Position numbers and translations under genes: made by a program. This document shows positions 12,983 through 38,334 of a DNA stretch of 64,000 nt, in pieces. The stretch is from the IMG/VR virus record IMGVR_UViG_3300049215_000772, positions 1-64,000 of that record. One strand, given 5' to 3'. Below the pieces are notes generated by a model. That model had not been told where the DNA came from, did no database searches, and saw nothing but the letters and a program-made list of their open reading frames with translations. Source of the stretch: a virus (Duplodnaviria > Heunggongvirae > Uroviricota > Caudoviricetes). Each line of letters starts with the position of its first letter. The first letter of the stretch is position 1.

Positions 12983-14212
12983 TTACATCACTCCGACGAG
13001 TCCATCGAGATAGCACTGCGCCTCGTAGCGGGCCATCGCCTTGCCGATCTCCGGGCCAGCCAGGTGCATGAAGTCTTCCGACTTGGCGACCGGCTGGTAT
13101 GCCAAGAAGTAGTCCATGTCACCGATGCTTGCGCCGGCGATTTCGGCGAAGTCACGAATGTCCTGCACCAACTCGGCCAATGCCTGCTCTCGCTGTTCCC
13201 CTTCAAGCTGCTTGTAGAGATCACGCTGCCGAAGCAGGTGGGCTACCTTGTCAACATTGAACAGATACAGTTTTTGCAGGAATTCCACCCGATCCGACAC
13301 GTCGTTCGGGTACTTCAGCTTGTTCAGGTGCTTCCGAACACCTTCACGTCCCTTCAGGAGCCATGCCAGGACCGCTTTCAGGTTCCGGCACCGACCGATC
13401 TTCTCGATGTCGGCGACGACCCCCAGGACGGCAGGCATCAGGCCCAGCGCCTCGTAGCTCTGGACGTACTTGGCAGGGTTTCGAGCCTTCTGCAAGCCGA
13501 CCGAGAACTCGTTGGCGATGCGCTCCGGGGACACACCCTTCAAGTCCCTGAACTCCTCGATGGCGTTCAAGGTGTCGGGGTCAAGGCTGATGTCGCTGTC
13601 CTTGAAGCGGTGGTAGAACCGTACCAGCCGGGGGATGCGTAGCTTGTCCTCCCGAAACCGATCACGGGCCACGCCTACTGGACGAACGACCAGGTTCTTG
13701 AGATCATCAAGTCCCTGTCCGAGTCCCTGTTCGTTGAGGTTGTAGTCCCGAATCTCCCGCTCGTGCAGGTGGTAGAACAAGGCGTTGATGGTCAGGTCAC
13801 GCCGAGCGGCGTCCTTGGCCGGCGTCGAGAAGACAACTTCATCGGGCCGACGACCATCACCAACGTCGGGGTCGTACCACTCCTCACGGAACGTGGCGAT
13901 TTCGTACTCGACTTCATCCAGCACGGCGCTGACGACGCCGAAGCTGACGCCCTTGGGGTAAGCGCTGATCCCCAACTTCTTTGCCTGCTGGCTGTTGAGG
14001 ATGCGGAGAACCTTGTCGGGATCGGCTTCAGTTGCCAGGTCCACGTCCTTGGGGTCGAAGTCGCCCCCGTGGAAGTGGCTGATGCCGAAGTCACGAACGA
14101 AACCACCGACGCCGTAAAGGTCTGCGTCGTGGGCGTTGAACAGGTTGTCCAGGGCGTAAACGGCCCCAGGCAGCGGAATTTCAGCTTTCAGTCGGTCGAA
14201 ACGGTCGCTCAT
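12983..14212 (-). CDS. cca: tRNA nucleotidyltransferase (CCA-adding enzyme, Pol-beta-like class II)
   Basis: 'GGFVRD', 'DVDLAT', 'RRDLTINAL' head-domain motifs in the canonical order. Confidence 0.8.
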   Translation of the reverse strand: MSDRFDRLKAEIPLPGAVYALDNLFNAHDADLYGVGGFVRDFGISHFHGGDFDPKDVDLATEADPDKVLRILNSQQAKKLGISAYPKGVSFGVVSAVLDEVEYEIATFREEWYDPDVGDGRRPDEVVFSTPAKDAARRDLTINALFYHLHEREIRDYNLNEQGLGQGLDDLKNLVVRPVGVARDRFREDKLRIPRLVRFYHRFKDSDISLDPDTLNAIEEFRDLKGVSPERIANEFSVGLQKARNPAKYVQSYEALGLMPAVLGVVADIEKIGRCRNLKAVLAWLLKGREGVRKHLNKLKYPNDVSDRVEFLQKLYLFNVDKVAHLLRQRDLYKQLEGEQREQALAELVQDIRDFAEIAGASIGDMDYFLAYQPVAKSEDFMHLAGPEIGKAMARYEAQCYLDGLVGVM

Positions 14213-16017: not shown

Positions 16018-18111
16018 ATGACAACTCAAACAAAGGACAAACAAATGCCACCCGTCACGAAAGTACAAGATCAGCCCGTTCTTGTTGCTTCAGCCGAATA
16101 CCCCTACGCCAAATGGAGTTTCGAGAAATTCAACCCGGTTCAAAGCCGGGCTTTTGAATTTTTTGACAAGGAAACCAGCGGCCTCATCGCCGCTATGACC
16201 AGCGCCGGCAAAACAGTGGTTGCCGAGATGTTCCTCGCCCATGAAATTCGCAAGCGTGGCGGTAAGGGCATGTTCCTTGCCCCGCTGCGTGCCTTGGCGC
16301 AGGAGAAGATCGACGACTGGACCGACAAGGAATATCATTTCAACGACAAGAAAATCTCCATTTGTACTGGCGATTACAGGCTCACTAAGGAGCGTGCCAA
16401 GGAGTTGAACGACGCCGATCTCATTATCATGACTTCGGAAATGCTCAACCATCGTTCCAGGAATTACAAATCGGAACAAAATGAGTGGCTGAAGGAAGTT
16501 GGCACCCTCATCGTTGATGAGTCCCACCTGCTCACTGTTCCTGGCCGTGGCGACCACCTGGAAGTGGGCCTCATGAAGTTCACTGAGATCAACCCCAATG
16601 CCCGACTGGTGTTGCTCAGTGCCACGATGCCTAATGTCGAGGAGATTGCCGAATGGGTGTCATATGCGCTCACCAAGCGTGATACTTTCGTATTGAGAAG
16701 TCAATATCGCCCGGTGCCTCTCAATACCCACTTCGAGAGCTACTACGACGGCTATCAGAAGTACGACGACAGGGAAGTGGAGAAGGTCAACAAAGCCCTC
16801 GACATCATCGAACACTACGACAAGGACAAGTTCCTTGTTTTCGCCCATACCAAGCGCACGGGCGAATTGATGAAGCAAGCCTGTCGTGCTGCTGGTATTA
16901 CCTGCGAGTTCCACAATGCCAACCTGGAAAAAAAAGATCGAGTGAAGCTGGAACACAACTTCCGCAAAGACCCAAAACTGCGAGTTGTTGTTGCCACGCC
17001 GACTTTGGCCTGGGGACTCAATATGCCGGCCCGCAGGGTCATCATCCTGGGTGTCCATCGTGGTCTGGAAGAAGTCGAAACTTACAACATTACGCAGATG
17101 ATCGGTCGTTCCGGTCGAGTGGGTCTGGACCCGCAGGGTGATGCCTATATCTTGCTGCCTGAGAGCAAGATGGATTTCTACAAGAACAGGCTCAAAAACC
17201 CCGACCGTATCGAGAGCCAACTGCTTTGCAAGGTGGGTGGAACGGGCGAATCGAAGCCCAAGCACAAGGTCTTGGCTTTTCATATTGTCAGTGAAATTCA
17301 TCACGGCGGCATCAAAACCACCGACGACGTTCACCACTGGTACAAGCGGAGTCTGGCTTGTTTCCAGAGCCTCGAACTGGAAGATGATGTCGTCAACGAC
17401 ACAATGGAACTGCTGAAGTTCAACGGGGCTGTGCGGGAAGAAAACGGCGAGTACAAGGTCACGCCTGTCGGCATGATCTCCAGTATGTTTTACTACAGTC
17501 CGTTCGACGTGAATGATCTGCGGAAGAATTTCAACGACCTGTTTGGCAACAACCATCAGGATGACGATTACTGGCTCTCGCTGGCCCTGGGCAACATCGA
17601 CACGAACCGCATGAACATCGTCACCAATGCGGAACGTGACGAGATGGCCACCTACGTCAACAAGATCAGGCAGTTGAATCCAGCGGGGTTTGGTTACAAG
17701 TGGTTCGATGCCGCAATGAAGGCTGGTTTCTGCTACTACAACCTGCTCAATGGCTTCAACAGCAATGTCCTGTCCGCAGTCCAGCGCAACCTTCAATTCG
17801 ACTACAATCGACTGAGCCAGGTTTTGATTGCCTTGGATTCGATGGGCTGCAAGTGGAGTCGGAGTGGTTGGCTCCATGCTTTGGAGCAGCGCATTTCCAG
17901 TGGCGTGCCGATGTACCTGGTTGACCTGTGCCGTATTCCCAACGTCGGCAAGGTGCGGGCCAAGAAGTTGTATGAGGCCGGGATCAAGACCGCTGAAGAG
18001 TTTGCTGATCTTGACCCCGCCGAGGCGAAAAAGCTGCTGAACATCAAGGACGAAATTCTCACTGAGATGATGTCGGAGGCGCAGAAGTTGGCATTGACCG
18101 GGGGACTGTAA
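16018..18111 (+). CDS. Ski2/Hel308-like superfamily 2 DNA helicase
   Basis: Q-motif/motif I 'FNPVQSRAF...AMTSAGKT', motif II 'VDESHLL', motif III 'LLSATMPN', motif VI 'QMIGRSGRVG', C-terminal helix-hairpin-helix 'IPNVGKVRAKKLYEAGIKTAEEF'; GGAGG RBS. Confidence 0.8.
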   Translation: MTTQTKDKQMPPVTKVQDQPVLVASAEYPYAKWSFEKFNPVQSRAFEFFDKETSGLIAAMTSAGKTVVAEMFLAHEIRKRGGKGMFLAPLRALAQEKIDDWTDKEYHFNDKKISICTGDYRLTKERAKELNDADLIIMTSEMLNHRSRNYKSEQNEWLKEVGTLIVDESHLLTVPGRGDHLEVGLMKFTEINPNARLVLLSATMPNVEEIAEWVSYALTKRDTFVLRSQYRPVPLNTHFESYYDGYQKYDDREVEKVNKALDIIEHYDKDKFLVFAHTKRTGELMKQACRAAGITCEFHNANLEKKDRVKLEHNFRKDPKLRVVVATPTLAWGLNMPARRVIILGVHRGLEEVETYNITQMIGRSGRVGLDPQGDAYILLPESKMDFYKNRLKNPDRIESQLLCKVGGTGESKPKHKVLAFHIVSEIHHGGIKTTDDVHHWYKRSLACFQSLELEDDVVNDTMELLKFNGAVREENGEYKVTPVGMISSMFYYSPFDVNDLRKNFNDLFGNNHQDDDYWLSLALGNIDTNRMNIVTNAERDEMATYVNKIRQLNPAGFGYKWFDAAMKAGFCYYNLLNGFNSNVLSAVQRNLQFDYNRLSQVLIALDSMGCKWSRSGWLHALEQRISSGVPMYLVDLCRIPNVGKVRAKKLYEAGIKTAEEFADLDPAEAKKLLNIKDEILTEMMSEAQKLALTGGL

Positions 18112-24073: not shown

Positions 24074-24298
24074 ATGAAAAACAGGAAGATTCACTGGCCG
24101 CTGCTTGTTGGTGTTACGGCGATTATGCTGGTGATGCTGCTGCTTGTGGTGGTGTTGCGAGCGGAGGTTTTCGTCGTAATTCTACCAATTGCAGCGATTG
24201 GGTTTGTGACCTACATTCTCTACGTTTTCCTCTTGTCCTTGGGCTACGGCGACAAGGCTGAGGAGAAGGAAACAAAAAATGAACAATCTGAGGCTTAA
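24074..24298 (+). CDS. small two-pass membrane protein
   Basis: Two hydrophobic helices. Confidence 0.4.
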   Translation: MKNRKIHWPLLVGVTAIMLVMLLLVVVLRAEVFVVILPIAAIGFVTYILYVFLLSLGYGDKAEEKETKNEQSEA

Positions 24299-25406
24299 AC
24301 TGATCGTGGGTGGGTTTGCCGGCCTGATGGTCTTGTGCGTTTTCGCCTTGATATTCGACACGGCGAAGGTGAGGGGCAATCAGGTTGGTGTGAAGGAAGG
24401 CTGGTGGACTGGTGTGAGTAATGACCCGCTCGGTCCTGGAACTTATTTCATCTGGCCCTGGGAGAAGGTCCAGGTGTACGATGCCGGCAACCAGGTCTTC
24501 GTCATGAACGACCGGACCCCACAACAGGGTGAGAAAAACAAAGGTCGAGACACGGACTCGTATTTGGTGCAGTCTTCGGACAGCCAGGATATGCACCTGA
24601 ACTTGATGGTTCAGTGGCGTATTGATCCGGCCCACGTTGTCAACTTGCACAAGATGGTTGGTCCCGACAACATCGAGGAACGTATTTTGCGTCCGACGAT
24701 GTTGCGTGTGGTGAAGGATGCCGCCACGGTGAAGAAAGCCCTGGACGTTTACTCCGGTGCGGGACTTGTCTCTCTCCAAAGTGAGATCGAGAAGGCTTTG
24801 AACGACCCCAAGGGTGAGTTGCGGGAGAGGGGCATCATTATCGACAGCTTCGTGATCGAACACATCAAGCTGGACCCGGAGTACGTCAAGGAAATCACGG
24901 CCCGCCAGGTTGCCGTGATGAAAGAACTTCGTGCCGCTCAGGAAGAAAAAGCGGCGCTGGCGATGTCATTGAAAGCCAAGGCTGAGGCTCGTGCGGACTA
25001 CGAGAAACAAGTTGTGGAGGCCGAGCGAGATGCTAAGGTCAAGGTGACGGCTGCCGAGGCTGCGGCCCAGCAACAGGTGTTGGCTGCCGAGGCCGAGAAG
25101 AAGAAAACCGTGTTGGCGGCTGAGGCTGAGAAGGAGTCTGGCGAGTTGAAGGCTGCCGCTATCTTGGCGGTTGGCAAGGCAACTGCCGAATCTGAGAAGC
25201 TGAAGCTGAGTGCTTACTCGGCTCCTGGAGCGGAACTCTTCACCAAGATCGAAGTTGCCAAAAGCCTGGGCGTGGCATACAGTGGTATCAAGGGCTACCT
25301 GCCTGAGAGCATGAACATATTCACGCTCGGAAACAACTATCAGCAGGCACTCGAAAACGTGTTGAGCGGCAGGGCTGTCCCGGTGCCAGTACCACAGAAG
25401 AAGTAA
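24279..25406 (+). CDS. SPFH/band-7 (stomatin/prohibitin/HflKC-like) membrane protein
   Basis: N-terminal transmembrane segment, SPFH core, long Ala/Glu/Lys coiled coil. Confidence 0.7.
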   Translation: MNNLRLKLIVGGFAGLMVLCVFALIFDTAKVRGNQVGVKEGWWTGVSNDPLGPGTYFIWPWEKVQVYDAGNQVFVMNDRTPQQGEKNKGRDTDSYLVQSSDSQDMHLNLMVQWRIDPAHVVNLHKMVGPDNIEERILRPTMLRVVKDAATVKKALDVYSGAGLVSLQSEIEKALNDPKGELRERGIIIDSFVIEHIKLDPEYVKEITARQVAVMKELRAAQEEKAALAMSLKAKAEARADYEKQVVEAERDAKVKVTAAEAAAQQQVLAAEAEKKKTVLAAEAEKESGELKAAAILAVGKATAESEKLKLSAYSAPGAELFTKIEVAKSLGVAYSGIKGYLPESMNIFTLGNNYQQALENVLSGRAVPVPVPQKK

Positions 25407-25777
25407 TGATCTATCGAACAAGGAAGATCGTCAAGCCTGGCGATCTGAACCCTGAAAACACACTCTTCGGCGGGCGCATGTTAGAATGGCTCGACGAGGA
25501 GTGTGCTATTTTTGCCGCCTGTCAGTTGGAAACAACCAGGCTGCGCACCAAGATCATTGGCGAGATTGACTTCAAAGCCCCTGCGTACCAAGGTGACATC
25601 ATCGAGATTGGAGTGGATGTTGTTTCGTTCGGCACGACCAGCATCACCATGAGGGCAGAGGCCCGCAACAAAAATAGTAGGCAGACCATCCTCACCATCG
25701 ACAAAGTTGTGATGGTTTACATCGGCGGTGATGGCAAACCGGCCCCACACGGTAAGACGAGTGTGAAGGAAGGGTAA
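25406..25777 (+). CDS. hotdog-fold acyl-CoA thioesterase (4HBT/YciA-like)
   Basis: 'NPENTLFGGRMLEWLDE' catalytic region. Confidence 0.55.
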   Translation: MIYRTRKIVKPGDLNPENTLFGGRMLEWLDEECAIFAACQLETTRLRTKIIGEIDFKAPAYQGDIIEIGVDVVSFGTTSITMRAEARNKNSRQTILTIDKVVMVYIGGDGKPAPHGKTSVKEG

Positions 25778-25789
25778 CTATGATAGGGC

Positions 25790-27199
25790 ATGAGTACACT
25801 ATCCGAATTCCTCAGACTTGACGCCGAGAAGAAGGTCCGCATCGCTGTTGCCGGTGATGCGATGGTGGATGAATACCACTACGTTACAGTGAAACGCATC
25901 AGCCCGGAGTTCCCCATTCCGGTGATGCTTTCACCACTTATGCAGCCCGATTATTCCCTTCCAGGCGGGGCTGCCAACGTCGCCTACCAACTCAGGCACT
26001 TCAACACTTCTGCGCATCTTGTCTCCCTAATCGACTCATATTCCTTGGCTGTGTTCGAGAAAGCCGGCCTGAGTGTGCATGGCTGTGTTGAGATGGTGTA
26101 CACCTACGGCAGCGTTCCTCGCAAGAAGCGTTTCTACAACAAAGACTTCGCCATGTATCGCTGGGACATCGAACGACCCAGGTATGGGATAGATGACGAT
26201 CATTTACACAGCTACCTTGCGCAATTGTTTGCCCAGCCGATTACTGCTCATGCCGACATCATCATCCTTTCCGATTACGACAAGGGGTTGTTTTGCGGCA
26301 AGCATCAGCGGGAGTTTCTGAACTGTGGCCTGCCTACCATTGTTGATCCGAAGGGGAAGGACATCGACAAGTGGCGTGGTTGTACTGTTTTCAAGCCCAA
26401 CAGCGTTGAGGCTGAAGCCCTATCGGGACAGAAGAAGTGGGAGCATCAGTGCAATTATTTCCGGGAGCGATTGGGCTGCCAGGCAGTTGTAATCACCCAG
26501 GAAGGAGATGGGGTTGTTGGGTTGTGTGCCGACAGCGCCGAATACTTCGAGTATAAGCCGAAGACCAAGGGTGTTCGGGCTGAAAGTGTGATTGGGGCCG
26601 GGGATTGTTTCATTGCGTTTTTGGCAATGGCGCTGGGGCATGGGTTTGCCGTACCACAAGCTGCTGAGGTTGCATTTGAAGCTGGAGCGTTGTATGTGCG
26701 TCGGAAACACAATGAGCCGATTACTCCACGGCAGTTGCGGCTCCGGGATGATCCGATTCAGGCGAAGATTGCGCCGATCAACGAGATCAAGGGGTGTCCG
26801 GGCAAGCTGGTGTTCACAAACGGATGTTTTGATCTTCTTCACAACGGGCATGTTGAAATGCTGAAGTTCGCCAAAACCAAGGGCGACCGGCTGGTGGTTG
26901 CCGTCAACACAGATGAAAGCGTAGCGAGGTTGAAACCTGGCAGGCCGTACATCAAGCTGGAAGATCGGATGAAGATGTTGGCGAGCCTGGAGATGGTTGA
27001 TTACGTCGTGAGTTTCGATGAAGACACGCCGCTCAGGTTGATCGAGGAGTTGGACCCGGATGTTCTGGTGAAGGGGTCCGAGTACAAGATGGAAAACATT
27101 GTGGGGGCAGAAATCGTCAAGGAAGTGTATGTTGCCCCTATGGTTGGCGGCATCTCGACGACTAGCCTGGTGGAAAAAATAAAGGCCCAGGAACCCTGA
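25790..27199 (+). CDS. hldE: bifunctional heptose-7-phosphate kinase / heptose-1-phosphate adenylyltransferase (RfaE/HldE-like)
   Basis: PfkB kinase blocks ('IAVAGDAMVDEY', 'GGAANVA', 'GAGDCFIAF') plus cytidylyltransferase blocks ('FTNGCFDLLHNGH', 'RLVVAVNTDES', 'VVSFDEDTP'), colinear with E. coli HldE. Confidence 0.85.
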   Translation: MSTLSEFLRLDAEKKVRIAVAGDAMVDEYHYVTVKRISPEFPIPVMLSPLMQPDYSLPGGAANVAYQLRHFNTSAHLVSLIDSYSLAVFEKAGLSVHGCVEMVYTYGSVPRKKRFYNKDFAMYRWDIERPRYGIDDDHLHSYLAQLFAQPITAHADIIILSDYDKGLFCGKHQREFLNCGLPTIVDPKGKDIDKWRGCTVFKPNSVEAEALSGQKKWEHQCNYFRERLGCQAVVITQEGDGVVGLCADSAEYFEYKPKTKGVRAESVIGAGDCFIAFLAMALGHGFAVPQAAEVAFEAGALYVRRKHNEPITPRQLRLRDDPIQAKIAPINEIKGCPGKLVFTNGCFDLLHNGHVEMLKFAKTKGDRLVVAVNTDESVARLKPGRPYIKLEDRMKMLASLEMVDYVVSFDEDTPLRLIEELDPDVLVKGSEYKMENIVGAEIVKEVYVAPMVGGISTTSLVEKIKAQEP

Positions 27200-27237
27200 G
27201 CCTTTATCAAGACGCACCGCCTTTATTGTTGGGGCGG

Positions 27238-27585
27238 TCAGTCGTCGCATTTTTCCATCTTCGGAGGGCAGCAGCCGTCCTTACAACAGCCAGATTTGGC
27301 CGGGCAGCACTTGCAGTTTGGTCCGCACTTCTTGTCAGCGCAGCACTTGCAATCTGGTCCGCACTTGCAGTCCTTGTTGCAACCACAATCTTTTTTGGCT
27401 TGCGGCTTGCAGCACGGGCAGCAGCCGTCGCAGCAGTCTGCGCAGGTGCAATTGCAGTTACAAGTGCAGTTGCAGCAGTTTGGATTGACGACGTGATGGT
27501 GATGGTGAACGAGACAAACCAACCCTCCTACGGCGAGGGCGATGGCCGTCAACGATCCCAGGAATGCACCAAAGAAAGTTTTCAT
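27238..27585 (-). CDS. secreted cysteine-rich metallothionein-like protein
   Basis: AAAGGAG RBS; signal peptide; His5 run; about 35% Cys in CC/CxC/CxxC arrays ('CCNCTCNCNCTCADCCDGCCPCC...'). Confidence 0.5.
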   Translation of the reverse strand: MKTFFGAFLGSLTAIALAVGGLVCLVHHHHHVVNPNCCNCTCNCNCTCADCCDGCCPCCKPQAKKDCGCNKDCKCGPDCKCCADKKCGPNCKCCPAKSGCCKDGCCPPKMEKCDD

Positions 27586-27626
27586 TTAAGTCTCCTTTCG
27601 AGTAAATGACCTCTATATGATAGGGT

Positions 27627-27908
27627 ATGGCGAAGAAAAAGTGTTCACGAAAGCAGATCAAGAAGCTGTACGACAAGAAGTGTTTCTTCTGCGGCCTGGA
27701 TGATTACGACCTGTTGGATGCCCATCGTATTTTTGAGGGCAGCGAGGGCGGAACCTACCATTGGATCAACATGCTGACTACTTGTTGTTTGTGTCACCGA
27801 AAGGTACACACGGGAAAGATCAAGATATTGGGGCATCATCCTAGCACCAAGGGCTGGTGTCTTCACTACATCGACGAAAATGGTGAAGAAAAATGGGTCC
27901 ACCACTAA
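27627..27908 (+). CDS. HNH endonuclease
   Basis: 'CFFCG...DAHRI...CCLCHRKVH' HNH/His-Me finger. Confidence 0.6.
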   Translation: MAKKKCSRKQIKKLYDKKCFFCGLDDYDLLDAHRIFEGSEGGTYHWINMLTTCCLCHRKVHTGKIKILGHHPSTKGWCLHYIDENGEEKWVHH

Positions 27909-28452: not shown

Positions 28453-29061
28453 ATGAAACAAATTACATCGACTGGCGACGGCATGAACGTGCTGATCGTT
28501 TGCGATTACTCTCCGCATCATCACTGGATGACGTTCGCCTCCTGGTATTCTTTCGCCAAGATGTTGCCGGATGCCAACGTGGAGATTTCTTGCAATCGCC
28601 TTCCTGTAACCTGGCAGATGTTTGATTGGGCCAGGACTTGTAAGGTCAAACTGCGCATTCATCAGCCGCTTACCAAAGAAGAAATCATCAGAAGTTATAG
28701 CGGCCCATTGATCGTGGTCGATCCAGATGTTTTGATGATTCGTGAAATTGCCGATAGCGAACTAGAATTCTACCAGAAGACTCCCTTTGCGAAATCGGGA
28801 AAGGTTTGGATTGTCAACGATCCAACTGCTGTTCCTACGCAAGCGGACGTGTGCTGCGATGTGAAAGAAGAGAAAATATGCACATTTGTAGCTTATCCGG
28901 GTGGGTGGGGTAAGTTTGTTACGTCATCATGGATAAATAAGATAAGTACGCCTTTCCAGCACAGGTTCGGGAAGGGCGAAATGACTTCCAATGAGGTCAA
29001 GGTCGAGAGATTGTGGAAGCAACTTTCACCCATTTTCCAAACCGTATCGAGGATAACATGA
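28453..29061 (+). CDS. hypothetical protein
   Basis: ORF only. Confidence 0.4.
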   Translation: MKQITSTGDGMNVLIVCDYSPHHHWMTFASWYSFAKMLPDANVEISCNRLPVTWQMFDWARTCKVKLRIHQPLTKEEIIRSYSGPLIVVDPDVLMIREIADSELEFYQKTPFAKSGKVWIVNDPTAVPTQADVCCDVKEEKICTFVAYPGGWGKFVTSSWINKISTPFQHRFGKGEMTSNEVKVERLWKQLSPIFQTVSRIT

Positions 29062-29358: not shown

Positions 29359-29700
29359 ATGCCACACTACGAGTTTCAATGCAAGAAGTGCGATTCGGTC
29401 TACGATGAGATCGTTTCCTACGACGAGAAGAACAAGTATCCGACAGTGAAGTGTCCCAAGTGCGGGAGCAAGAAGAAGACCAAACTGCTGAGTCAGATCG
29501 GCGGCATCATCTTCGCTAATGCCAGGGAATCCAGCAAGTGGGACAACTTCACCTACCGGGCCGGCAAAACGGCGGACGAGGCCAAGGAGTGCCGTCGCCA
29601 GGCAGAAGAAGCGTCCCATATGGGAGCCGATCCGTACCACAGTGCGGCACAGATCGCTGCTGACATCAACAACGACGCCAATTACGGCGAAGTTAAATAG
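29359..29700 (+). CDS. FmdB-family zinc-ribbon protein
   Basis: 'MPHYEFQCKKCDSVYDE...KCPKCGS'. Confidence 0.5.
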   Translation: MPHYEFQCKKCDSVYDEIVSYDEKNKYPTVKCPKCGSKKKTKLLSQIGGIIFANARESSKWDNFTYRAGKTADEAKECRRQAEEASHMGADPYHSAAQIAADINNDANYGEVK

Positions 29701-30490
29701 TCGTTGGGTCTTTTTCTTCTGTTTCCAGTACCTTCTCCTTCGGCGCACGGAACAACAGGGCTTCGATTTCTTGATCCCAGCCTTCTTCTCCAAGTGCTTC
29801 CCTCACTGCTTGTAGCACTTCGGGCTTCTGGTAGTCGGGATGCTCTAGGTAGTTGCTTTCGTAGACGTGGAAGCAGTTCTTGTTTCCTACCGCTCCCAAG
29901 TACAACTCCGTGAACCACAGCCCATGCTTGCCGTAGTTGACAGTGGACGTGACGTAGCAACGACCACCCGTTGACAGGCATGGCCACATGACTTTCCAGT
30001 GCCATTCCATCCTTGGGATGAAGGCTGCTTCGTCGATCACGAGATGGGTGCAAGCCCTGCCTCGTGCGGCTTGTGGGATGCTGAAGATGATGTCGCTGCC
30101 CGTGGCGGCGAATGTCTTCTCTCGTAGGTTGTTCCTTTCCATTCTTGGCTGCATCCAGGTCGGCAGCAGTTGAATTGATAGGTTGAACATTTCCGACCAG
30201 TTCTCGGCTTCTCCCTTGCTTTTGCAAATCCAGATGATTCGCTTCTTCTCCCGGAACATACATTGGTGCAAGCAGTACAGCATGTGAACGGTACTGATTC
30301 CACCTTGCCGCCATTTTTTAGAAATGACGAAACGATTCTCTTCTAATTCAGCCGCCAAGCGAAGTTGCCAAGACGACAATTCAAAGGGCAGCAGCCCCCG
30401 TAATGGGTGTTGGTACTTGATGTAATTCTTGCAGAAGTATGGGAAACTTTCGGCACACTTGATGATTTCGTTGGCTTGTTTTACCAGCAT
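29693..30490 (-). CDS. terminase large subunit-like ATPase domain (no nuclease domain)
   Basis: 'FPYFCKNYIKYQHP...PFELSSWQ...FVISKKWRQGGISTV' (deviant Walker A as in TerL families) and Walker B 'HLVIDEAAF'; only about 265 aa. Confidence 0.45.
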   Translation of the reverse strand: MLVKQANEIIKCAESFPYFCKNYIKYQHPLRGLLPFELSSWQLRLAAELEENRFVISKKWRQGGISTVHMLYCLHQCMFREKKRIIWICKSKGEAENWSEMFNLSIQLLPTWMQPRMERNNLREKTFAATGSDIIFSIPQAARGRACTHLVIDEAAFIPRMEWHWKVMWPCLSTGGRCYVTSTVNYGKHGLWFTELYLGAVGNKNCFHVYESNYLEHPDYQKPEVLQAVREALGEEGWDQEIEALLFRAPKEKVLETEEKDPTTI

Positions 30491-30667: not shown

Positions 30668-32779
30668 ATGATGGAATACGCACCGGAGGTAAAGATGAAT
30701 CACCTGAAGAGAGTGACGGGACTTTTCGACAAGAACAAGTTTCGGCAACTGAACGCTGAGATGAGCATGGCAGAGTATCTTGACCTCTGCTTGAAGAACC
30801 CACGGCTGGGCCGGAATGCCTGGCAGATGATTTACGACATGATTATGGAGGATGGTTCCGAGACTTTCGAGCAATATCGGAAAACCTACACTCACTACAA
30901 CTTTTTCGACGACCCTGAAATCCCCATCATCGGTCTGGCTGAGACGAAGGACGCCTTGGTGAAGTTCATCAAGGGCGCTGCCGGTCACTACGGCACTGAG
31001 AAGCGTGTGCTTCTGTTGCACGGACCTGTCGGTAGCTCCAAGTCCACCATTTGCCGCCTTATCAAGCGGAGACTGGAAAAGTACAGTCACACGGATGCTG
31101 GCGCATGGTACTCCTACAAGTGGGTGAATTTGCCCACGGGTGAGGACGGTATCTACACCAACCCGGAGAACGAGTGCCCACTGCACGAGAATCCACTCAA
31201 GCTGCTTCCTTTGGAAGTGCGTGAGCCTTTCCTGGCGGAAATGAACGCCACCCTATTGGAAATGCAGGAGGCCGACAAGAAGGCGGGTGCCGCCAAGGAA
31301 CACTACACCCTTCGCATGGACGGCGAGTTGAATCCACGCTGCAAGTTGTTCATGAATGAACTGCTCAAGCGTTACCAGGGCGACCTGGAGAAAGTTTTGA
31401 GCGAACACATCGTTGTTGTCCGCAAGGTGTACAGCGAAGTGGATCGTTGTGGTATTGCAACCTTCCAGCCGAAGGATGAGAAGAACCAGGACTCGACCGA
31501 GTTGACGGGCGACATCAACTTCGGCCTCATCTCCAAGTTCGGTTCCGACTCTGACGCCCGTGCCTTCAATTTCGACGGCGAGTTTTGCTGCGGCAATCGT
31601 GGCATGATCGAGTTCATCGAAGCCCTGAAGCTGGATCAGGCGTTCCTGTATGACTTGCTGGGTGCCAGCCAGGAACAAAGCATCAAGCCGAAGAAGTTCA
31701 GCCAGGTGTTGATTGACGAAGCTATCTTCGCCCACACCAACGACGCTGAATACCAGAAGTTGAAGTCCAACCAGTACATGGAAGCCCTTCGTGACCGTAC
31801 CGTGAAGATCACGGTTCCGTACACCCGGAAGTGGGACGAAGAAACCAAGATTCTGGAGAAGGACTACGGCCCCGGCAAGGTTCGTCAACACATCGCTCCT
31901 CACACGAGGGAAATCGCCGCTTTGTGGGCAGTGCTGACCCGCCTCCAGGACGACAAGGATGGCAAACTATCCCTCGTCGAGAAGGCTGAATTGTACAACG
32001 GCAAGCTGCTCCCTGGTTGGACCGAGGACGCAGTGAAGGAACTGATGGACAAGCACCCCGAAGAAGGCATGACCGGCGTATCCGTGCGGTACGTTCAGGA
32101 CAAGTTCTCGAACTGCCTGTCCAACAACCACGAGTACGTCAATACCTTCATGGTGTTGAACGAACTGCGTGATGGTTTGCACGACTCGTCGCTGCTGACG
32201 AACAAGGATCAGGTTAGCCGGTACATTACCTGCATCGACCTGGCTCTCAAGAAGCTGACGGAAATCCTCAAGGCTGAAGTCCAGAAGGCTTTGGTCGGCG
32301 ATGAGGATTCGGCGATCAGGCTGTGCGCCAACTACATCGACAATGTGATGGCCTACATCAACAAGGCCAAGGTCCGTGACAAGGTGACGGGCCAGGACCG
32401 CAAGCCGGATGAGCGGCTGATGCGGCAGGTGGAAGAGAAGATCGAGATTCCCGACCAGGGAGCCGATGACTTCCGCCGTCAGATCGCTGCCTTCATCGGT
32501 GATCTTGCTCACAAGGGCAAGCAGTTCAAGTGGGATAGCAATCCGAAGCTGAAGAAGGCTTTGGAAATGAAGCTGTTCGAGGATGTGAAGGACACCATCA
32601 AGTTGTCGGCCCTCAATGTGTCGGCGGCTACGGTCGTGGACAAGGACATCCAGCAGCGTATCCAGGATTTGAAGACCAGACTCATTAACCAGTATGGTTA
32701 CAACGAACAGAGCGCAACTGACGTGCTGGACTTCGTTGGCGGCATCTTCGCCCGTGGCGACCTGGCAGAAGAAGAGTAA
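30668..32779 (+). CDS. prkA: PrkA/YeaG-family serine protein kinase (AAA+ N-domain + kinase domain)
   Basis: 'LLLHGPVGSSKST' P-loop, 'GNRGMIEFIEALK', 'AIFAHTNDAEY', and the PrkA C-domain; colinear with E. coli YeaG. Confidence 0.9.
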   Translation: MMEYAPEVKMNHLKRVTGLFDKNKFRQLNAEMSMAEYLDLCLKNPRLGRNAWQMIYDMIMEDGSETFEQYRKTYTHYNFFDDPEIPIIGLAETKDALVKFIKGAAGHYGTEKRVLLLHGPVGSSKSTICRLIKRRLEKYSHTDAGAWYSYKWVNLPTGEDGIYTNPENECPLHENPLKLLPLEVREPFLAEMNATLLEMQEADKKAGAAKEHYTLRMDGELNPRCKLFMNELLKRYQGDLEKVLSEHIVVVRKVYSEVDRCGIATFQPKDEKNQDSTELTGDINFGLISKFGSDSDARAFNFDGEFCCGNRGMIEFIEALKLDQAFLYDLLGASQEQSIKPKKFSQVLIDEAIFAHTNDAEYQKLKSNQYMEALRDRTVKITVPYTRKWDEETKILEKDYGPGKVRQHIAPHTREIAALWAVLTRLQDDKDGKLSLVEKAELYNGKLLPGWTEDAVKELMDKHPEEGMTGVSVRYVQDKFSNCLSNNHEYVNTFMVLNELRDGLHDSSLLTNKDQVSRYITCIDLALKKLTEILKAEVQKALVGDEDSAIRLCANYIDNVMAYINKAKVRDKVTGQDRKPDERLMRQVEEKIEIPDQGADDFRRQIAAFIGDLAHKGKQFKWDSNPKLKKALEMKLFEDVKDTIKLSALNVSAATVVDKDIQQRIQDLKTRLINQYGYNEQSATDVLDFVGGIFARGDLAEEE

Positions 32780-32793
32780 TCCCGTCTTAGGGT

Positions 32794-32841
32794 GGGGCGG
32801 GCGGCTTCCTTCAGTCCACGAGGCCGCACCGCCCCTTTTTT
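32794..32841 (+). terminator. rho-independent terminator after prkA
   Basis: 12-bp GC stem (one bulge) 'ggggcgggcggc...gccgcaccgcccc' followed by TTTTTT. Confidence 0.6.
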
Positions 32842-32855
32842 CAAGGTGGAGAGAC

Positions 32856-33071
32856 ATGAACAACCACTGGTTGAATGAAGCAAAGTACAAGAAGATGTTC
32901 AAGGAGATCGACGAGGCTGCAATGGAAGCCTGGGGTGAAGATGGCACGCTGGCCGATCTCATCAACTCCTTGGATGACGAGCAAACGGCGCTTTTGATGG
33001 GAATGAAGATCAAGGATGTTGCCGCCGACCTTGACGACTATGAGTTCGGCTTGACTCTCATCAAGCCATAA
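32856..33071 (+). CDS. small acidic protein
   Basis: GGTGGAGAG RBS; 71 aa. Confidence 0.4.
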   Translation: MNNHWLNEAKYKKMFKEIDEAAMEAWGEDGTLADLINSLDDEQTALLMGMKIKDVAADLDDYEFGLTLIKP

Positions 33072-33091
33072 CAACTAACAGGTAAACAACA

Positions 33092-34564
33092 ATGGACGAA
33101 TTTCAAGACTTTATCGACGTTTCTTGTCAAAGCGGCATTATTGAAGAATTGGCGAACAATAACTGTCCGTTTCTGTCGTTACTTTGTGAGCTAATTGACA
33201 ATGTGGCAGCAGAATTGGAACATTGTCAGACCGCCCGTGTTCACATCAAAATTGGTGGCCCTTGGACGACTATTGCCTCAAACAACAGTAAAGTCCTTGA
33301 TCTACAACAGGCATACATGGAGGTTTCTGATAACGCAACTGGCATTAAGTCTGACCGGCTTGCTCATTGTTTGTCGCTGGCTGCGAAACCGGAAAGCAGT
33401 GGTACGTTGCATGAGCATGGGCTGGGCATGAAGACGGCCATCATGAGTCTTGGTAAGTTGGATTATCTCATCACTAAGACGAAGGATGAGGATTTTGCTT
33501 CTCGCATCGACGAACTTACCATTGGTAAAATTCTGCGGCGCAAAGATACTGATACTTTCAAAAAAGGCGAAAGTGGCACGATCATTCGCCTCAAGAACTT
33601 GAAGCCGAAGGTTTACAAAGAGAAGCGATTGTATCTGAGGAATGTTATCGACCACCTTGGCGCTCGCTACGCCCGGCTTCTCACCAAGAACCAAATGACC
33701 GGACGCAAATTGGACATCCAATTTGATTTGCTCGATGAAAACGACAATGTGCGTGATAGCTGGACAATTCAGCCTTGTTTTCCTTTCTACGAAAACAACG
33801 GACGCAACATATTGAAAGAAGAGTTCGGCGGCAATAATTGGGGAGCGCAGCTTGAATTTGGATTCACTCCTTCTGAGTCAGAGTATATCCAAAATGGACT
33901 TGAGGTTCCGGCCAACTCCCATCCTTACAAACGGAATTGTCGGGTGATTGATGTTGTTCACCATGATAGAGTTCTTTGTCGGCTGGGAGCAGATGATTTG
34001 TACCCAGGCTCTCACTATATGTTTGCTCCATTTGTTGGCGTTCTTACTTTGAGGTATGGTTTTCGTACTTCGATGACCAAGGATGGGGTTTTGCGAGATG
34101 AGAACTGGAATGAACTTCTCGAAAAAGTGGTGGATGTCACCAAGGGACTTGTGGAGGAGTATGTTCGACGATACGAACGGCTCACCCAGGACGAAAAAGA
34201 CTACCGAGATCAGTTGTATCAAATTCAAACTAAAGGAGAGGACAAGGAGGTATTGAAAGAGTTTGCTGTTGAGGGAACTGATGGCAACATTGATTTGTTG
34301 GTCAATGACGAAGTGTGGGAACTCAAGGCAGAACAGGCCCAAGGGATTGATGTGTACCAGGTGTTGTATTACATCGACACCTGCGATAAAGCCAAGAAAA
34401 CTAGCGGACGCCTGATTGCTCCGTCTTTTTCTGACGGGTGTAAATGGACTGCCCAACATTTGAAAAAGACAAGGAAGGTTGATGTGAAGTTGAAGACATT
34501 TGAGGATGTCGGTTTGGTGAAGGGTATTGCAGCGAAAAAGAAAGCAAAAAAGAAGTCCATGTGA
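33092..34564 (+). CDS. GHKL (Bergerat-fold, HATPase_c) ATPase
   Basis: N-box 'ELIDNVAAE', G1 'SDNATGI', G2 'HGLGMKTA'. Confidence 0.6.
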   Translation: MDEFQDFIDVSCQSGIIEELANNNCPFLSLLCELIDNVAAELEHCQTARVHIKIGGPWTTIASNNSKVLDLQQAYMEVSDNATGIKSDRLAHCLSLAAKPESSGTLHEHGLGMKTAIMSLGKLDYLITKTKDEDFASRIDELTIGKILRRKDTDTFKKGESGTIIRLKNLKPKVYKEKRLYLRNVIDHLGARYARLLTKNQMTGRKLDIQFDLLDENDNVRDSWTIQPCFPFYENNGRNILKEEFGGNNWGAQLEFGFTPSESEYIQNGLEVPANSHPYKRNCRVIDVVHHDRVLCRLGADDLYPGSHYMFAPFVGVLTLRYGFRTSMTKDGVLRDENWNELLEKVVDVTKGLVEEYVRRYERLTQDEKDYRDQLYQIQTKGEDKEVLKEFAVEGTDGNIDLLVNDEVWELKAEQAQGIDVYQVLYYIDTCDKAKKTSGRLIAPSFSDGCKWTAQHLKKTRKVDVKLKTFEDVGLVKGIAAKKKAKKKSM

Positions 34565-35289
34565 TATTTGAAAGTTCTACACGAGCGCAGTACAATATGG
34601 GTATGCCAAACCATATATGCCAACAATGCGGTGTAGAATTCTACAACAAGAATAGCGGTGCTAGGTACTGCTCGCAGCAATGTACCAAGAACAGCACCAA
34701 GAAAGGCACGAGCGGCAAATGCTACAACTGCGGTAAGGAAGTTTATATTCCGAACCATAAGAACATCCAGAAGACCTTCTGTAGTTGGGAATGCAACATG
34801 GAGGCCCAGCGCAAGAGACGCCCGACTAGGGTGTGTAAGCACTGCGGAAGGGAATTCAAGAAGAAGGCCAGGAGCAATGCGATGTTTTGTTCTCCAGCCT
34901 GCCGTTTGAGTTCAGAATACAACATGCAACAACTTGCCGCCATGAGGAAGAAACAGGCCGGCAAGAAGCCCACCAAATTGGAATTATTGGGATATAGCAT
35001 CCTCGATGAGATCGGCCTGGAGTATGAGAAACAGTACATATTCGACAGATTTGTGGCCGATGCCTATGTTAAAGAACTGAACCTGATCGTACAATTTGAT
35101 GGCGATTACTGGCACGGCAATACCAGTAAGTTTCCGACGCTCTCGGAGTTTCAGATGAAGCAAACAGAAAGAGATCGCCGAGCAGATGCAAAAGCCCGTG
35201 ATCTTGGGCATCGAGTCATCCGGTTGTGGGAATCGGATGTCTACAAGGATCAACAAGCAGTGAAGAACCGCATACTGTTGAAGGAGTGA
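34561..35289 (+). CDS. zinc-ribbon + Vsr-like endonuclease (putative Vsr-family homing/nicking endonuclease)
   Basis: Several CxxC pairs at the N-terminus; C-terminus 'LIVQFDGDYWHGN...ERDRRADAKARDLGHRVIRLWESDV' matches the Vsr 'F.DGCFWHG...ERD.RD...L...GW.V..VWE'; GTG at 34561 or ATG at 34597. Confidence 0.6.
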   Translation: MIFESSTRAQYNMGMPNHICQQCGVEFYNKNSGARYCSQQCTKNSTKKGTSGKCYNCGKEVYIPNHKNIQKTFCSWECNMEAQRKRRPTRVCKHCGREFKKKARSNAMFCSPACRLSSEYNMQQLAAMRKKQAGKKPTKLELLGYSILDEIGLEYEKQYIFDRFVADAYVKELNLIVQFDGDYWHGNTSKFPTLSEFQMKQTERDRRADAKARDLGHRVIRLWESDVYKDQQAVKNRILLKE

Positions 35290-35292
35290 AAG

Positions 35293-36513
35293 ATGCCCCG
35301 GAGGATCGAAGAAGATCACAAAGATTTTCGAGACGTAGTTTCAGGAAAGATTCGCAAAGCCCTCAAGAAGTTCATCAAGTCGGGCCAGATATTCCGCAAC
35401 CGTGGAAAGAACGGCAAGATTTCCATTTCTATCCCCAAGATTGACATCCCTCACATCGTCTACGGCGACACGGGAGAAGGTGTTGGGCGTGGTCCTGGAA
35501 AGCCCGGTGACGTGATTGGCAAAGACCCGCAACCTGGACAGGGTGCAGGCCAGGAGTCCAGCGAAGGTATCACCATCAATCTGGACCTGGAAGAAGTCCT
35601 CAAGTTCATGCAGGACGACTTGGCCCTGCCGAACCTGAAGCCGAAGCCGAACGAGACGTTTGAAGACATCAAGATCAAGTACAACAACATCTCGCTGGTC
35701 GGCCCCGAAAGCCTGCGTCACAACCGCAGAACTTTCCTCCAGGCCATCAAGCGACAGGCGTGCATGGGCACCCTGGATGATCTGCACATGGTTCCTGGCT
35801 GCAAGGAACCCAGGAAGATCATCACTCCCTGGCCGGCTGACAAGCGTTACCGCCAGTACAACGAAATCCGCATTCCGTCGAGCAACGCCCTTATCGTCTA
35901 CGCCCGTGATGGGTCAGGAAGTATGGATGCTGTGAAGTGCGACATCGTGTCGGACATGGCGTGGTGGATCGACGTGTGGATCAGAAGGTTTTACACCCGT
36001 GTCGAGCGCATGTATGTCTGGCATGACTCCGCTGCGATGGAAGTGGACGAAGAGAAATTCTACAAGTACAGGTTCGGCGGCGGTACTACCTGTTCGTCTG
36101 CGTTGAAGTTTATCACCAAGCAGTTCGAGAACAGGTTCCCACCGCAGAAGTGGAATGTCTACGTTTTCTATTTCTCGGACGGCGAGAATTGGGGCGAAGA
36201 TAATGAAGTGTTCATCAACACCCTGAAGGAAGAGTTCCAGCCTCATATTGTGAACTTTGTCGGCATCACGCAGATTCTTGCTTACAATTACGATGGCTCC
36301 CTGAAGCATATTGTCGATGAGGCGATTAAGTCCAACATACTCGACAAGGATCAGGTGAGAACAGTGTCCATTGGTCAGGAAACTACGCCGGCTGCTGGTA
36401 GTCCGTGGAGTCCGCCCAGCTTGACGGAAGAACAACGCAACGAACAAGTGCTGCGGGCCATCAAGCAACTGCTGGGCAGCAAGAAGTCCGACAAGGAGGA
36501 GAAGGACGACTGA
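35293..36513 (+). CDS. yeaH: YeaH/YhbH (DUF444, vWA-like) protein
   Basis: 'DLALPNLK', 'DGSGSMD', 'SDGENWGED' match E. coli YeaH 'DLALPNLK', 'DVSGSMD', 'SDGDNW'. Confidence 0.85.
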   Translation: MPRRIEEDHKDFRDVVSGKIRKALKKFIKSGQIFRNRGKNGKISISIPKIDIPHIVYGDTGEGVGRGPGKPGDVIGKDPQPGQGAGQESSEGITINLDLEEVLKFMQDDLALPNLKPKPNETFEDIKIKYNNISLVGPESLRHNRRTFLQAIKRQACMGTLDDLHMVPGCKEPRKIITPWPADKRYRQYNEIRIPSSNALIVYARDGSGSMDAVKCDIVSDMAWWIDVWIRRFYTRVERMYVWHDSAAMEVDEEKFYKYRFGGGTTCSSALKFITKQFENRFPPQKWNVYVFYFSDGENWGEDNEVFINTLKEEFQPHIVNFVGITQILAYNYDGSLKHIVDEAIKSNILDKDQVRTVSIGQETTPAAGSPWSPPSLTEEQRNEQVLRAIKQLLGSKKSDKEEKDD

Positions 36514-36749
36514 TGTTTTACTACTGTATGGCCTGCGGTGAGGAGTTGGAGTCACCAGGAATAGGGTATTACTATTCCCAAGAGTGTAAGAAGTGTAACA
36601 AGTTCAACGTCAGTGTATATTGGTATGGCTACGATGTAAACATTGACGACAAGTTCTTCCATTTTGATGAATCTGGCTATGGGAACAGGGAAAGCCAACA
36701 AGCCTTAGAGGAATACCTCAAGCAAAGGAGCGAGCAAAATGGGCAATAA
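36512..36749 (+). CDS. small zinc-ribbon protein coupled to yeaH
   Basis: TGATG overlap with the yeaH stop; 'CMACGEE...CKKCNK'. Confidence 0.45.
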
Positions 36750-38334
36750 GTTCATGCACGGATCGAGCATCTTGCTCGGCGACAATACAGTTCCCGGCGT
36801 GCAACTCCCAAAGGAGATGAAGGAAAACGTCCCCATCATCCTTCAGGCTTGTCGGGATTGGGGGTTGGATTTCTACCCCACAGTGGTCCAACTGCTGACC
36901 TACGACGAAATCTCCGAGATCGCTGCCTACGGCGGCTTCCCGGTCAGGTATCCTCATTGGCAGTTCGGTATGGAGTACGAAGAACTTCAGCGGGGCTATG
37001 AGTTTGGGATGCACAAGATTTACGAGATGGTCATCAACACCAATCCCTGCTACCAGTGGTTGCTGAGTTCCAACAGTCTGGAAGACAACCTGACCGTCGT
37101 GGCTCATGCTACAGGGCACAATGACTTCTTCAAGAACAACATCCATTTCAGCGCCACCGACACCAACATGCTGAACAAGATGGCGAACCACGGCACCCGT
37201 ATTCGCCGTTACATGACCAGGTGGGGCAAGGAGCGTGTTGTTGAGTTCATCGACCATGTTCTGCGGCTGGAGACGTTGATCGACGGGGCTGAGGCGTGGA
37301 CACAGAAAACGATCCGGGACAGGAACCTTTCGGATCAAAGGAAGTACCGCCATCCGAGAAGGTTGAAGGTGAGCAAGGAACGGCTCTACATGGAACCGTT
37401 CATCAACACACGGGACTTCCGCCAGGAAGAAAACAAGCGGATTTCCAAGCTGGACACGGCGGACGAAATTGGCCTGTTCACTGATCCGACCAAGGATATT
37501 CTTGGTTTCCTGCGGGACAATGCTCCTCTCAAACCGTGGCAGCAGGACATTGTTGCCATGTTGTATGAAGAAAGTTTGTACTTCTATCCGCAAAGACAAA
37601 CTAAGGTAATGAACGAAGGGTGGGCCTCGCTGACCGACCATATTATCATGGCCCGGCAGGGTTATATCGCCCTGGGTCAGAAACAGCATGATATGGGTAT
37701 TGTTGAGTATGCCGCTCACAAGATGGGAGTTCTTGGCGGCAAGTACAGCATGAACCCGTACAAGCTGGGCTTCTACTTGTTCCTGGACATTGAAGAAAGA
37801 TGGAACAAGGGCCAGTTCGGTACGGAGTGGGATGAGTGCGACGACATCAGGAAGAAGGAAAAGTGGGACACTGGCGCAATGCTCGGCAAGGAGAAGATTT
37901 TCGAGATCAGGAAGTATTATGACGACCTGACTTTCCTGAATGAGTTCTTCACCGAGGACTTCTGCCGGGCACAGGAATACTTCTACTGGAAGCACTATCC
38001 GAATGGTGAGTACCGATTGGAGCATCGTGACTTCAAGGAAATCAAGGCTGGGTTGATGCGCCGCCACCTGAACGGAGGGTTGCCTTCCATCAAGCTGACT
38101 GAGCCGAACTACCGTGGCAAGGGGTTCATGATGCTCCAGCATGATTGGGACGGGCGTGCGATTTACGATCCGTATGTTCGTGATGTTATGACTTCGTTGC
38201 GATTCTTGTGGGGCAACGACATTTTCTTGGCAACGAAGGACGATGATGGCCGAGAAGCCATTTATGGTTGCTATGGAACTGCCGAGGATGATGTTGAATT
38301 GGTTTCCCGCAAGGACCATATGAAGGATTGGTAA
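36739..38334 (+). CDS. spoVR: SpoVR/YcgB-family protein
   Basis: 'WGLDFYP...AAYGGFPVRYPHWQFGMEYE', 'HATGHNDFFKNN' and full-length colinearity with SpoVR. Confidence 0.85.
   Translation: MGNKFMHGSSILLGDNTVPGVQLPKEMKENVPIILQACRDWGLDFYPTVVQLLTYDEISEIAAYGGFPVRYPHWQFGMEYEELQRGYEFGMHKIYEMVINTNPCYQWLLSSNSLEDNLTVVAHATGHNDFFKNNIHFSATDTNMLNKMANHGTRIRRYMTRWGKERVVEFIDHVLRLETLIDGAEAWTQKTIRDRNLSDQRKYRHPRRLKVSKERLYMEPFINTRDFRQEENKRISKLDTADEIGLFTDPTKDILGFLRDNAPLKPWQQDIVAMLYEESLYFYPQRQTKVMNEGWASLTDHIIMARQGYIALGQKQHDMGIVEYAAHKMGVLGGKYSMNPYKLGFYLFLDIEERWNKGQFGTEWDECDDIRKKEKWDTGAMLGKEKIFEIRKYYDDLTFLNEFFTEDFCRAQEYFYWKHYPNGEYRLEHRDFKEIKAGLMRRHLNGGLPSIKLTEPNYRGKGFMMLQHDWDGRAIYDPYVRDVMTSLRFLWGNDIFLATKDDDGREAIYGCYGTAEDDVELVSRKDHMKDW

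Follow-up and report, generated by a model that had tools for sequence, protein, structure and literature searches.

Within the 64-kb window, as we call the whole stretch of viral DNA analyzed here, a small gene on the minus strand lies between a convergent gene for an HldE-like bifunctional heptose kinase/adenylyltransferase and a divergent gene for a small HNH endonuclease (27627-27908, plus strand). It begins with ATG, ends with a stop codon at 27238-27240 and encodes the product MKTFFGAFLGSLTAIALAVGGLVCLVHHHHHVVNPNCCNCTCNCNCTCADCCDGCCPCCKPQAKKDCGCNKDCKCGPDCKCCADKKCGPNCKCCPAKSGCCKDGCCPPKMEKCDD, which opens with MKTFFGAFLGSLTAIALAVGGLVCLVHHHHHVVNPNCCNCTC and closes with KCDD. The features of the locus are collected in Table 1. 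Besides an ORF of 115 aa with an excellent ribosome-binding site, a sequence-only reading of this stretch had noted a run of five His and an interspersion of Lys and Asp among the Cys residues, all of which are found here. Its figure of about 35% Cys holds for the tail that follows the His run, in which 29 of the 84 residues are Cys (34.5%, or 33 to 35% for a tail taken as 84 to 89 aa), but not for the protein as a whole, which has 30 Cys (26%). This content is far beyond chance: across the whole window, even a loose filter for Cys was passed only by this ORF, by a shadow ORF overlapping it and by a 44-aa Arg/Cys-rich shadow ORF.

Table 1. Coordinates of the Cys-rich gene, its parts and its convergent neighbor in the window
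Feature	Positions	Strand	Basis or remarks
hldE-like bifunctional heptose kinase/adenylyltransferase	25790..27199	+	PfkB and CTP_transf_like domains, phrog_7878; convergent neighbor
Cys-rich membrane protein CDS, 115 aa	27238..27585	-	ORF and translation, homologs at the same position, dN/dS 0.06-0.34, BLASTP E = 1e-11 to L008
Metallothionein-like tail, residues 32-115	27241..27492	-	29 Cys, 13 Lys and 9 Asp; free of Arg and aromatic residues
Conserved core DCKCGPDCKCCADKKCGPNCKC, residues 72-93	27307..27372	-	Aligned with L001, L008, L015, L045 and L058; tandem 18-nt and 36-nt duplications
His5 run, residues 27-31, adjoining the anchor	27493..27507	-	Translation; encoded by a GTGATG micro-repeat (2.7 copies)
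Predicted transmembrane anchor TFFGAFLGSLTAIALAVGGLVCLV, residues 3-26	27508..27579	-	24-residue hydrophobic run, AlphaFold helix, GxxxG enrichment in the family
Shine-Dalgarno sequence AAAGGAG	27592..27598	-	6 nt before the ATG, read directly; comparable AGGAG-like site in most family members
CTATCATATAG, possible phage promoter element	27613..27623	-	28-38 nt before the ATG; by inference only

Before turning to the relatives of this gene, the possibility has to be considered that it is no gene at all, being either a chance ORF or the shadow of a gene on the opposite strand, where an Ala-rich frame of 127 aa (27226-27609) does indeed lie open across it. We regard this as barely credible. The plus-strand frame starts with a TTG situated inside the intergenic hairpin and is preceded by no Shine-Dalgarno sequence; each of the antisense frames is uninterrupted in 6 or fewer of the 32 members of the family described below, and the overlapping plus-strand ORF of the relative L001 lies in a different frame. 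The minus-strand frame, for its part, is under purifying selection. By the Nei-Gojobori method, dN/dS ranges from 0.06 to 0.34 in the 12 pairs with computable dS, and in the pair L046/L062, whose proteins are 95% identical, pS is 0.31 against a pN of 0.028, with synonymous changes in 8 of 19 Cys codons. Aligned Cys columns thus remain Cys despite swaps between TGC and TGT. The sequence-only reading had itself named a real gene on the opposite strand as an outcome that would undo it; the antisense frames, none of them consistently open, and the dN/dS well below 1 on the minus strand contradict that outcome. On these comparative grounds, we take the Ala-rich ORF to be a shadow and the minus-strand ORF, with its ribosome-binding site and its syntenic homologs, to be a true protein-coding gene of a huge phage.

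The homologs came to light by means of synteny. A conserved hypothetical protein encoded nearby (28453-29061) led to a 146-kb IMG/VR contig (IMGVR_UViG_3300045125_000119; locus L001), where an ORF of 71 aa on the minus strand takes up the slot between hldE and the HNH gene. This ORF has an AAGGAG site, 20 Cys, a hydrophobic N terminus and a core, DCKCxDCKCxADKKC, that it has in common with the window protein. A Logan contig (L005) has a gene call for the identical protein, and in the 595-kb uncultured phage LR756511 (L006), hldE is followed by a convergent ORF of 70 aa with a ribosome-binding site, a transmembrane segment and a tail with 12 Cys. With an alignment of four HldE proteins as the query, we then obtained 80 IMG/VR loci, many of them on contigs of 200 to 460 kb. 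A convergent small ORF combining a hydrophobic N terminus with a Cys-dense tail follows hldE at 38 of these, its stop codon falling mostly between -28 and +52 nt from that of hldE and frequently overlapping it by 4 nt; in the window, the two genes end at 27199 (hldE) and 27238 (Cys-rich gene). Two further loci have short Cys/His variants, and the rest, including the 436-kb contig L003, are without the gene. Short ORFs of related character near hldE comprise one of 53 aa in L025 (4238-4399, minus strand), which lies about 300 nt beyond hldE, is Cys-rich and lacks a transmembrane segment, and, just past hldE, a lipobox-type ORF of 43 aa with 4 Cys plus HH in L031 and a transmembrane ORF of 47 aa with a CxxC plus His in L066. 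In the IMG/VR contig of L001, hldE itself appears as two overlapping ORFs (3880-5213), whereas the Logan contig from that phage has it unbroken (476 aa); the break is probably an assembly frameshift.

For the purposes of this study, membership in the family required a hydrophobic anchor or signal at the N terminus and, after it, a tail containing no fewer than 7 Cys in 30 residues. The window protein has this architecture as well as the convergent position directly downstream of hldE, and it is accompanied by 31 other non-redundant sequences. Composition-adjusted BLASTP with the window protein gave E = 1e-11 for L008, over the full length including the anchor, E = 2e-6 for L058, from residue 4 onward, and E = 8e-5 for L001; the first two alignments are colinear and take in the N terminus MKxFFGAFLGxL, which is devoid of Cys. 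Homology of the close relatives, which share this motif and the core DCKCxxDCKCxADKKC, hence goes beyond composition, and the distant subfamilies are assigned by synteny and architecture only. In sum, the comparisons indicate a conserved family of small, membrane-targeted proteins that huge phages encode at a fixed spot convergent with hldE. Where its members are publicly annotated, they are called as genes and named “hypothetical protein.”

Conventional searches were nearly silent on this family. The window protein matches no Pfam family at E <= 0.1, and 28 members searched at E <= 1 match no metallothionein family in Pfam, nor Chlam_OMP3. None of the members has a match in NCBIfam or PHROGs, and PDB sequences gave none either, even with a profile of the 28 members. 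A word search of 5.8 billion proteins with the window protein returned nothing, and HMMER against 1.84 billion representatives returned a single match, a fungal repeat protein, which we rejected as a homolog, the match being compositional only. Isolated phages gave no match by tblastn or blastn. Peptide-pattern scans of IMG/VR found nothing with the window protein and one match with the subfamily alignment, and the 28-member profile retrieved just 5 database proteins. Full-text literature searches recovered no report of phage metallothionein-like proteins or of Cys-rich proteins from huge or jumbo phages. The family is therefore previously undescribed within the scope of Pfam, NCBIfam, PHROGs, PDB sequences and these literature searches, in keeping with the earlier remark that no phage counterpart was well described. 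Its composition leaves profile- and word-based searches largely blind, so that it could be recovered only through the synteny with hldE.

The flanks of the gene hint at how it may be expressed. Since it is convergent with hldE, the two are not cotranscribed. In 15 of the 32 non-redundant members (loci L012-L063), against 0.8 expected, the start codon is preceded at a distance of 19 to 40 nt by a TATATA/ATATAT hexamer, and CTATCATATAG, the corresponding possible element of the window gene, is not enriched elsewhere in the 64-kb window. This suggests that the Cys-rich gene has its own phage promoter, with the hexamer as a candidate element of this phage clade. On the other side, the hairpin that separates hldE from the Cys-rich gene does not significantly exceed shuffled sequences in stability (z = -1.4 and -1.2). 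Terminator calling gave no clean candidate there, and the region matches no Rfam family. No evidence of a functional link between the two genes was found either; their pairing may simply reflect a conserved core block of hldE, the Cys-rich gene, HNH, conserved hypotheticals, a Zn-ribbon protein and PrkA. The position of the HNH gene is kept in L001, L003 and L005, and the three conserved hypotheticals and the Zn-ribbon protein that come after it in the window stand in the same order in L001 and L003. Directly upstream (24279-27199, plus strand), an SPFH/Band 7 membrane protein and a 4HBT thioesterase precede the bifunctional HldE, making up a set of envelope/sugar-nucleotide auxiliary genes.

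The tail of the protein is metallothionein-like in composition, and in this respect the sequence-only reading agrees with what is seen across the family, whose tails average 28% Cys, 17% Lys, 7% Gly, 7% Asp and 6% Glu, with merely 0.9% Arg and 1.6% aromatics. The CC, CxC and CxxC arrays that it had described do occur in the window tail (8, 10 and 2 instances, respectively, among the gaps between successive Cys), but their spacing does not differ significantly from that of shuffles of the protein’s own composition (for CxC, 10 observed against 6.2 expected; P = 0.07). In the family, CxC ranks first (34%), before CC (20%) and CxxC (17%), a profile close to that of human MT2A. The number of Cys per tail varies from 8 to 33, their fraction from 20 to 39%, and their parity is mixed, with 20 even and 13 odd counts in 33 tails; this variability fits an expandable array of ligands better than a fixed disulfide fold. 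The arrays expand by tandem duplication: the window gene has two copies of a 36-nt unit with 83% identity (KCGPNCKCCPAK and KCGPDCKCCADK), as well as periods of 18 and 12 nt. The His5 run is not kept in the relatives, and His residues near the anchor or at the C terminus recur in several members. In a compact subfamily, the motif HDHKxCxxCxCExxCxC(6)CxxKCLCD has two invariant His followed by eight invariant Cys. AlphaFold assigned pLDDT values below 50 to residues 27-83 and 85-115 of the window protein and gave a like result for a compact relative, by which the tail is predicted to lack an autonomous fold.

For the N terminus of the window protein, by contrast, AlphaFold gives one helix that spans residues 2-29; the block means of pLDDT over residues 1-20 are 68 and 76. 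Residues 3-26 form a stretch of 24 residues devoid of any charged or strongly polar side chain and carry a stripe of small residues at four-residue spacing, G6-G10-A14-A18. This is a recurrent property of the family: GxxxG pairs in the hydrophobic segments number 22, against 6.6 +/- 2.3 in shuffles, and stripes of at least three small residues at such spacing are present in 15 of the 32 members, against 4.5 expected. A conserved packing stripe of this kind points to a hydrophobic segment that is retained and self-associating, rather than to a signal peptide that is discarded. A Sec (SPase I) signal peptide is expected to have a positive n-region, an h-region of about 7 to 15 residues and a polar c-region with small residues at -3/-1; the window protein offers an MK n-region and a possible site at A16-L17-A18, but its hydrophobic run extends 8 residues further, to 24 in total. 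No lipobox was found in it with a PROSITE-type pattern. Of the signal peptide claimed by the sequence-only reading, then, the targeting to the membrane or the export machinery is supported, and cleavage is the less likely outcome, the unbroken run and the single predicted helix suiting an anchor better; by the same token, the epithet “secreted” becomes doubtful. We conclude that the N terminus of the window protein is probably an uncleaved, GxxxG-rich transmembrane helix. Long transmembrane anchors also occur in L007, L008, L015, L045 and L058. In other relatives, the N terminus takes different forms, namely, a PROSITE-type lipobox pattern that ends a short h-region and runs straight into the Cys-rich part (L012, L013 and L069, with near-misses in L028 and L044) and classic signal peptides (L030 and L090, the latter with MKMKRSAVLVALLVSVFAMGAFA followed by GEQCC, on a short contig in a bacterial MAG).

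Because relatives bear these lipobox and signal peptide variants, the tail is likely to be extracytoplasmic, and because of the charge difference across the anchor, with MK (+1) on its N side and HHHHHVVNPN... (0) on its C side, the window protein itself is predicted to be oriented N-in/C-out. In the subfamily of L037, L043, L046, L060, L063 and L084, an acidic or neutral N-terminal tail is paired with a Lys/Arg-rich C-terminal flank (+1 to +5, mostly at least +2), which predicts a cytoplasmic tail; the topology of the family may thus not be uniform.

Several known systems offer parallels. Metallothioneins (the vertebrate/crustacean type of Pfam Metallothio; the bacterial SmtA/BmtA of Metallothio_Pro; the mycobacterial MymT) are likewise small, and Cys, spaced as CxC, CC and CxxC, makes up about 30% of their residues. 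They are rich in Lys, almost free of Arg and without aromatics, have no hydrophobic core or predicted metal-free fold, and they too grow by modular duplication. Measured against an operational definition of metallothioneins (low mass, about 30% Cys in CxC/CC/CxxC, aromatic-free, little or no His, soluble and cytosolic), the size and Cys content of the window tail agree; the tail has no aromatics, yet is preceded by the His5 run, and the 24-residue hydrophobic helix is at odds with a soluble cytosolic protein. Bacterial metallothioneins do use His, SmtA having a Cys9His2 cluster. Unlike these soluble, cytosolic proteins, the members of the phage family have a transmembrane anchor, a lipobox or a signal peptide, match none of the corresponding HMMs and are encoded in huge phages at a fixed place beside hldE. 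By sequence criteria, the family is metallothionein-like in composition yet stands outside every curated metallothionein family, from which the membrane anchor sets it apart. The chlamydial outer-membrane lipoprotein OmcA (Chlam_OMP3), which acts through intermolecular disulfides in the outer-membrane complex, is another small protein rich in Cys that is exported and held in the envelope by a lipid or membrane anchor. L012, L013 and L069, with their lipobox patterns, are similar to it; the window protein differs from it in having no lipobox, a higher density of Cys and no HMM match. The copper storage proteins Csp1 and Csp3 share with the proposed role of the tail the idea of storing metal on Cys thiolates, but they are folded four-helix bundles with a Cys-lined core, in contrast to a phage tail with no predicted fold and no match to any PDB chain. 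T4 Imm and T5 Llp are, again, small phage envelope proteins with their own expression signals and fast divergence, though not Cys-rich and without detectable similarity in PHROGs. Finally, the eukaryotic tail-anchored CYSTM and high-sulfur keratin-associated proteins are membrane linked or extremely Cys-rich and of low complexity, a likeness that is compositional only: they belong to another kingdom, CYSTM proteins have their Cys inside a C-terminal transmembrane segment, and the keratin-associated proteins are soluble cross-linkers.

Considering these parallels, we propose as the favored role of the window protein, with somewhat less than even confidence, that of a membrane-tethered metal-thiolate array. 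It would be held in the inner membrane by its uncleaved, self-associating (GxxxG) transmembrane helix and, in the most likely N-in/C-out orientation, would expose the 29 Cys of the tail, together with the His5 run, on its periplasmic side. There the tail, having no hydrophobic core, could capture soft metals such as Zn, Cu(I) and Cd through its array of thiolates (plus His), and the metal might be buffered or sequestered at the membrane surface while a huge phage completes its long infection cycle. What favors this role is the lack of a hydrophobic core or predicted fold, the bias of Lys over Arg, the conserved His and the variable number of Cys. Several points tell against it: no member matches a metallothionein family of Pfam, one subfamily is predicted to have a cytoplasmic tail, and the Cys spacing of the window protein is indistinguishable from that of its own shuffled composition. 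Further, a periplasmic tail is expected to be oxidized to disulfides by the host DsbA, and known periplasmic metal binders mostly rely on Met and His rather than Cys. Csp1 is exported to the periplasm, an example showing that Cys can serve to bind metal beyond the cytoplasm. An oxidizing periplasm suits better the main rival of the metal-thiolate array, namely, an envelope protein whose tail is oxidized into a knotted or intermolecular mesh that stiffens the envelope or blocks receptor or DNA entry, perhaps as a superinfection-exclusion factor. Models exist for both effects, in that Cys-rich proteins stiffen the chlamydial envelope and T4 Imm and T5 Llp are small superinfection-exclusion factors. 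The extracytoplasmic placement of the tail by the lipobox and signal peptide variants and the predicted N-in/C-out orientation would agree with such a mesh, as would the GxxxG stripe, which hints at oligomers gathering the tails, and the small, fast-evolving, moron-like character of a gene with its own ribosome-binding site and promoter-like motif. We nevertheless consider it unlikely, though deserving of weight: a Cys number that ranges so widely and is so often odd leaves no fixed disulfide framework, a disulfide knot has no evident use for the conserved His or for the preference of Lys over Arg, one subfamily seems to face the cytoplasm, and neither Chlam_OMP3 nor another Pfam family is matched.

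The remaining alternatives make other uses of the same features. The very high density of thiols on a membrane tether, in arrays grown by duplication as if the dosage of Cys outweighed exact structure, might suggest a redox sink or decoy, in which the 29 Cys of a periplasmic substrate titrate DsbA/DsbB/DsbC or scavenge oxidants and so alter the oxidative folding of host envelope proteins. This appears improbable to us, as the strong purifying selection on DCKCxxDCKCxADKKC and HDHKxCxxCxC is an excess of constraint for a generic sink and no thioredoxin- or Dsb-like CxxC motif is found among the ORFs of the window. Attention could instead be given to the helix, whose enriched and conserved GxxxG stripes would permit a holin- or viroporin-like protein that oligomerizes through a glycine zipper into a pore or lesion, with the Cys/Lys tail timing its action via metal or redox state. 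The small size, the one transmembrane segment and the highly charged tail bear a general resemblance to holins; we think this quite improbable all the same, given that the neighbors are hldE, HNH and conserved hypotheticals, with no endolysin or spanin gene nearby, and that the lipobox and signal peptide variants have no long transmembrane segment. The sequence-only reading had also entertained a precursor of a heavily cross-linked peptide, which would here be a RiPP precursor, for instance one of sactipeptide or ranthipeptide type. Although the ORF is short and Cys-rich, neither the window nor the related loci inspected have a radical-SAM or other maturase adjacent to it, its flanks being hldE and the HNH gene, and its N terminus is better read as a membrane anchor than as a leader peptide, which makes this highly improbable. 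The same reading’s suggestion of a virion decoration sits poorly with a protein that has a membrane anchor or a lipobox, and we rejected it as unlikely.

Returning to the metal-thiolate array, we would extend it from the window protein to the family at large, somewhat more tentatively: huge phages might bear conserved, hitherto unrecognized membrane-bound metallothioneins, in which glycine-zipper anchors, or lipid anchors in some lineages, carry expandable Cys/Lys/His arrays. With these, the phage would take up or buffer soft metals, or else thiol redox equivalents, in the envelope of its host during infection. In our assessment of the comparative data, the family is robust, widespread and unannotated, and its metal-binding function is putative. 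Should the membrane-bound metallothionein reading prove right, these proteins would be the first viral class of membrane-tethered metallothioneins. If the tail binds metal, it would give phages a route to steer the metal and redox homeostasis of the host at the membrane, a mechanism that our literature searches did not turn up. The Cys-rich gene also provides a conserved and readily recognized marker for a large clade of uncultured huge phages, and comparable low-complexity families may be systematically missed in viral dark matter. Phage Cys-rich proteins of this kind might, in addition, serve as compact metal binders for membrane display.

The window comes from a huge phage. It encodes RecA (6953-8320, plus strand), a CCA-adding/polyA polymerase (12983-14212, minus strand), a DEAD-box helicase (16018-18111, plus strand) and a class I aminoacyl-tRNA synthetase (43156-45051, plus strand), a set of genes typical of huge phages, together with a PrkA/DUF444/SpoVR module and pieces of DnaE. 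The module (30668-38334, plus strand) is a run of PrkA, HATPase_c_3, DUF444 and SpoVR proteins that resembles the bacterial yeaG-yeaH-ycgB stress module; its PrkA-like protein is 65% identical to the copy in LR756511.1 and about 30% identical to the PrkA of Thermus jumbo phages. DnaE, the alpha subunit of DNA polymerase III, seems to be encoded in pieces, on two or more ORFs with about 12 kb between them (41475-42902 and 54853-56739, both on the plus strand), one with the PHP plus an NTPase domain and the other with the finger and HHH domains. A stand-alone ORF of 265 aa (29693-30490, minus strand) matches the large terminase (PF03237, phrog_5989) in its N-terminal ATPase part only, and such a stand-alone terminase ATPase gene is also called in the related Logan contig (L005, 959-1756). 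In the same contig, a 215-aa ORF (10300-10947, plus strand) with an N-terminal CWADCCNCCSSSGGGGGGGGCGDCGWEW segment represents another Cys/Gly-rich protein in a related phage.
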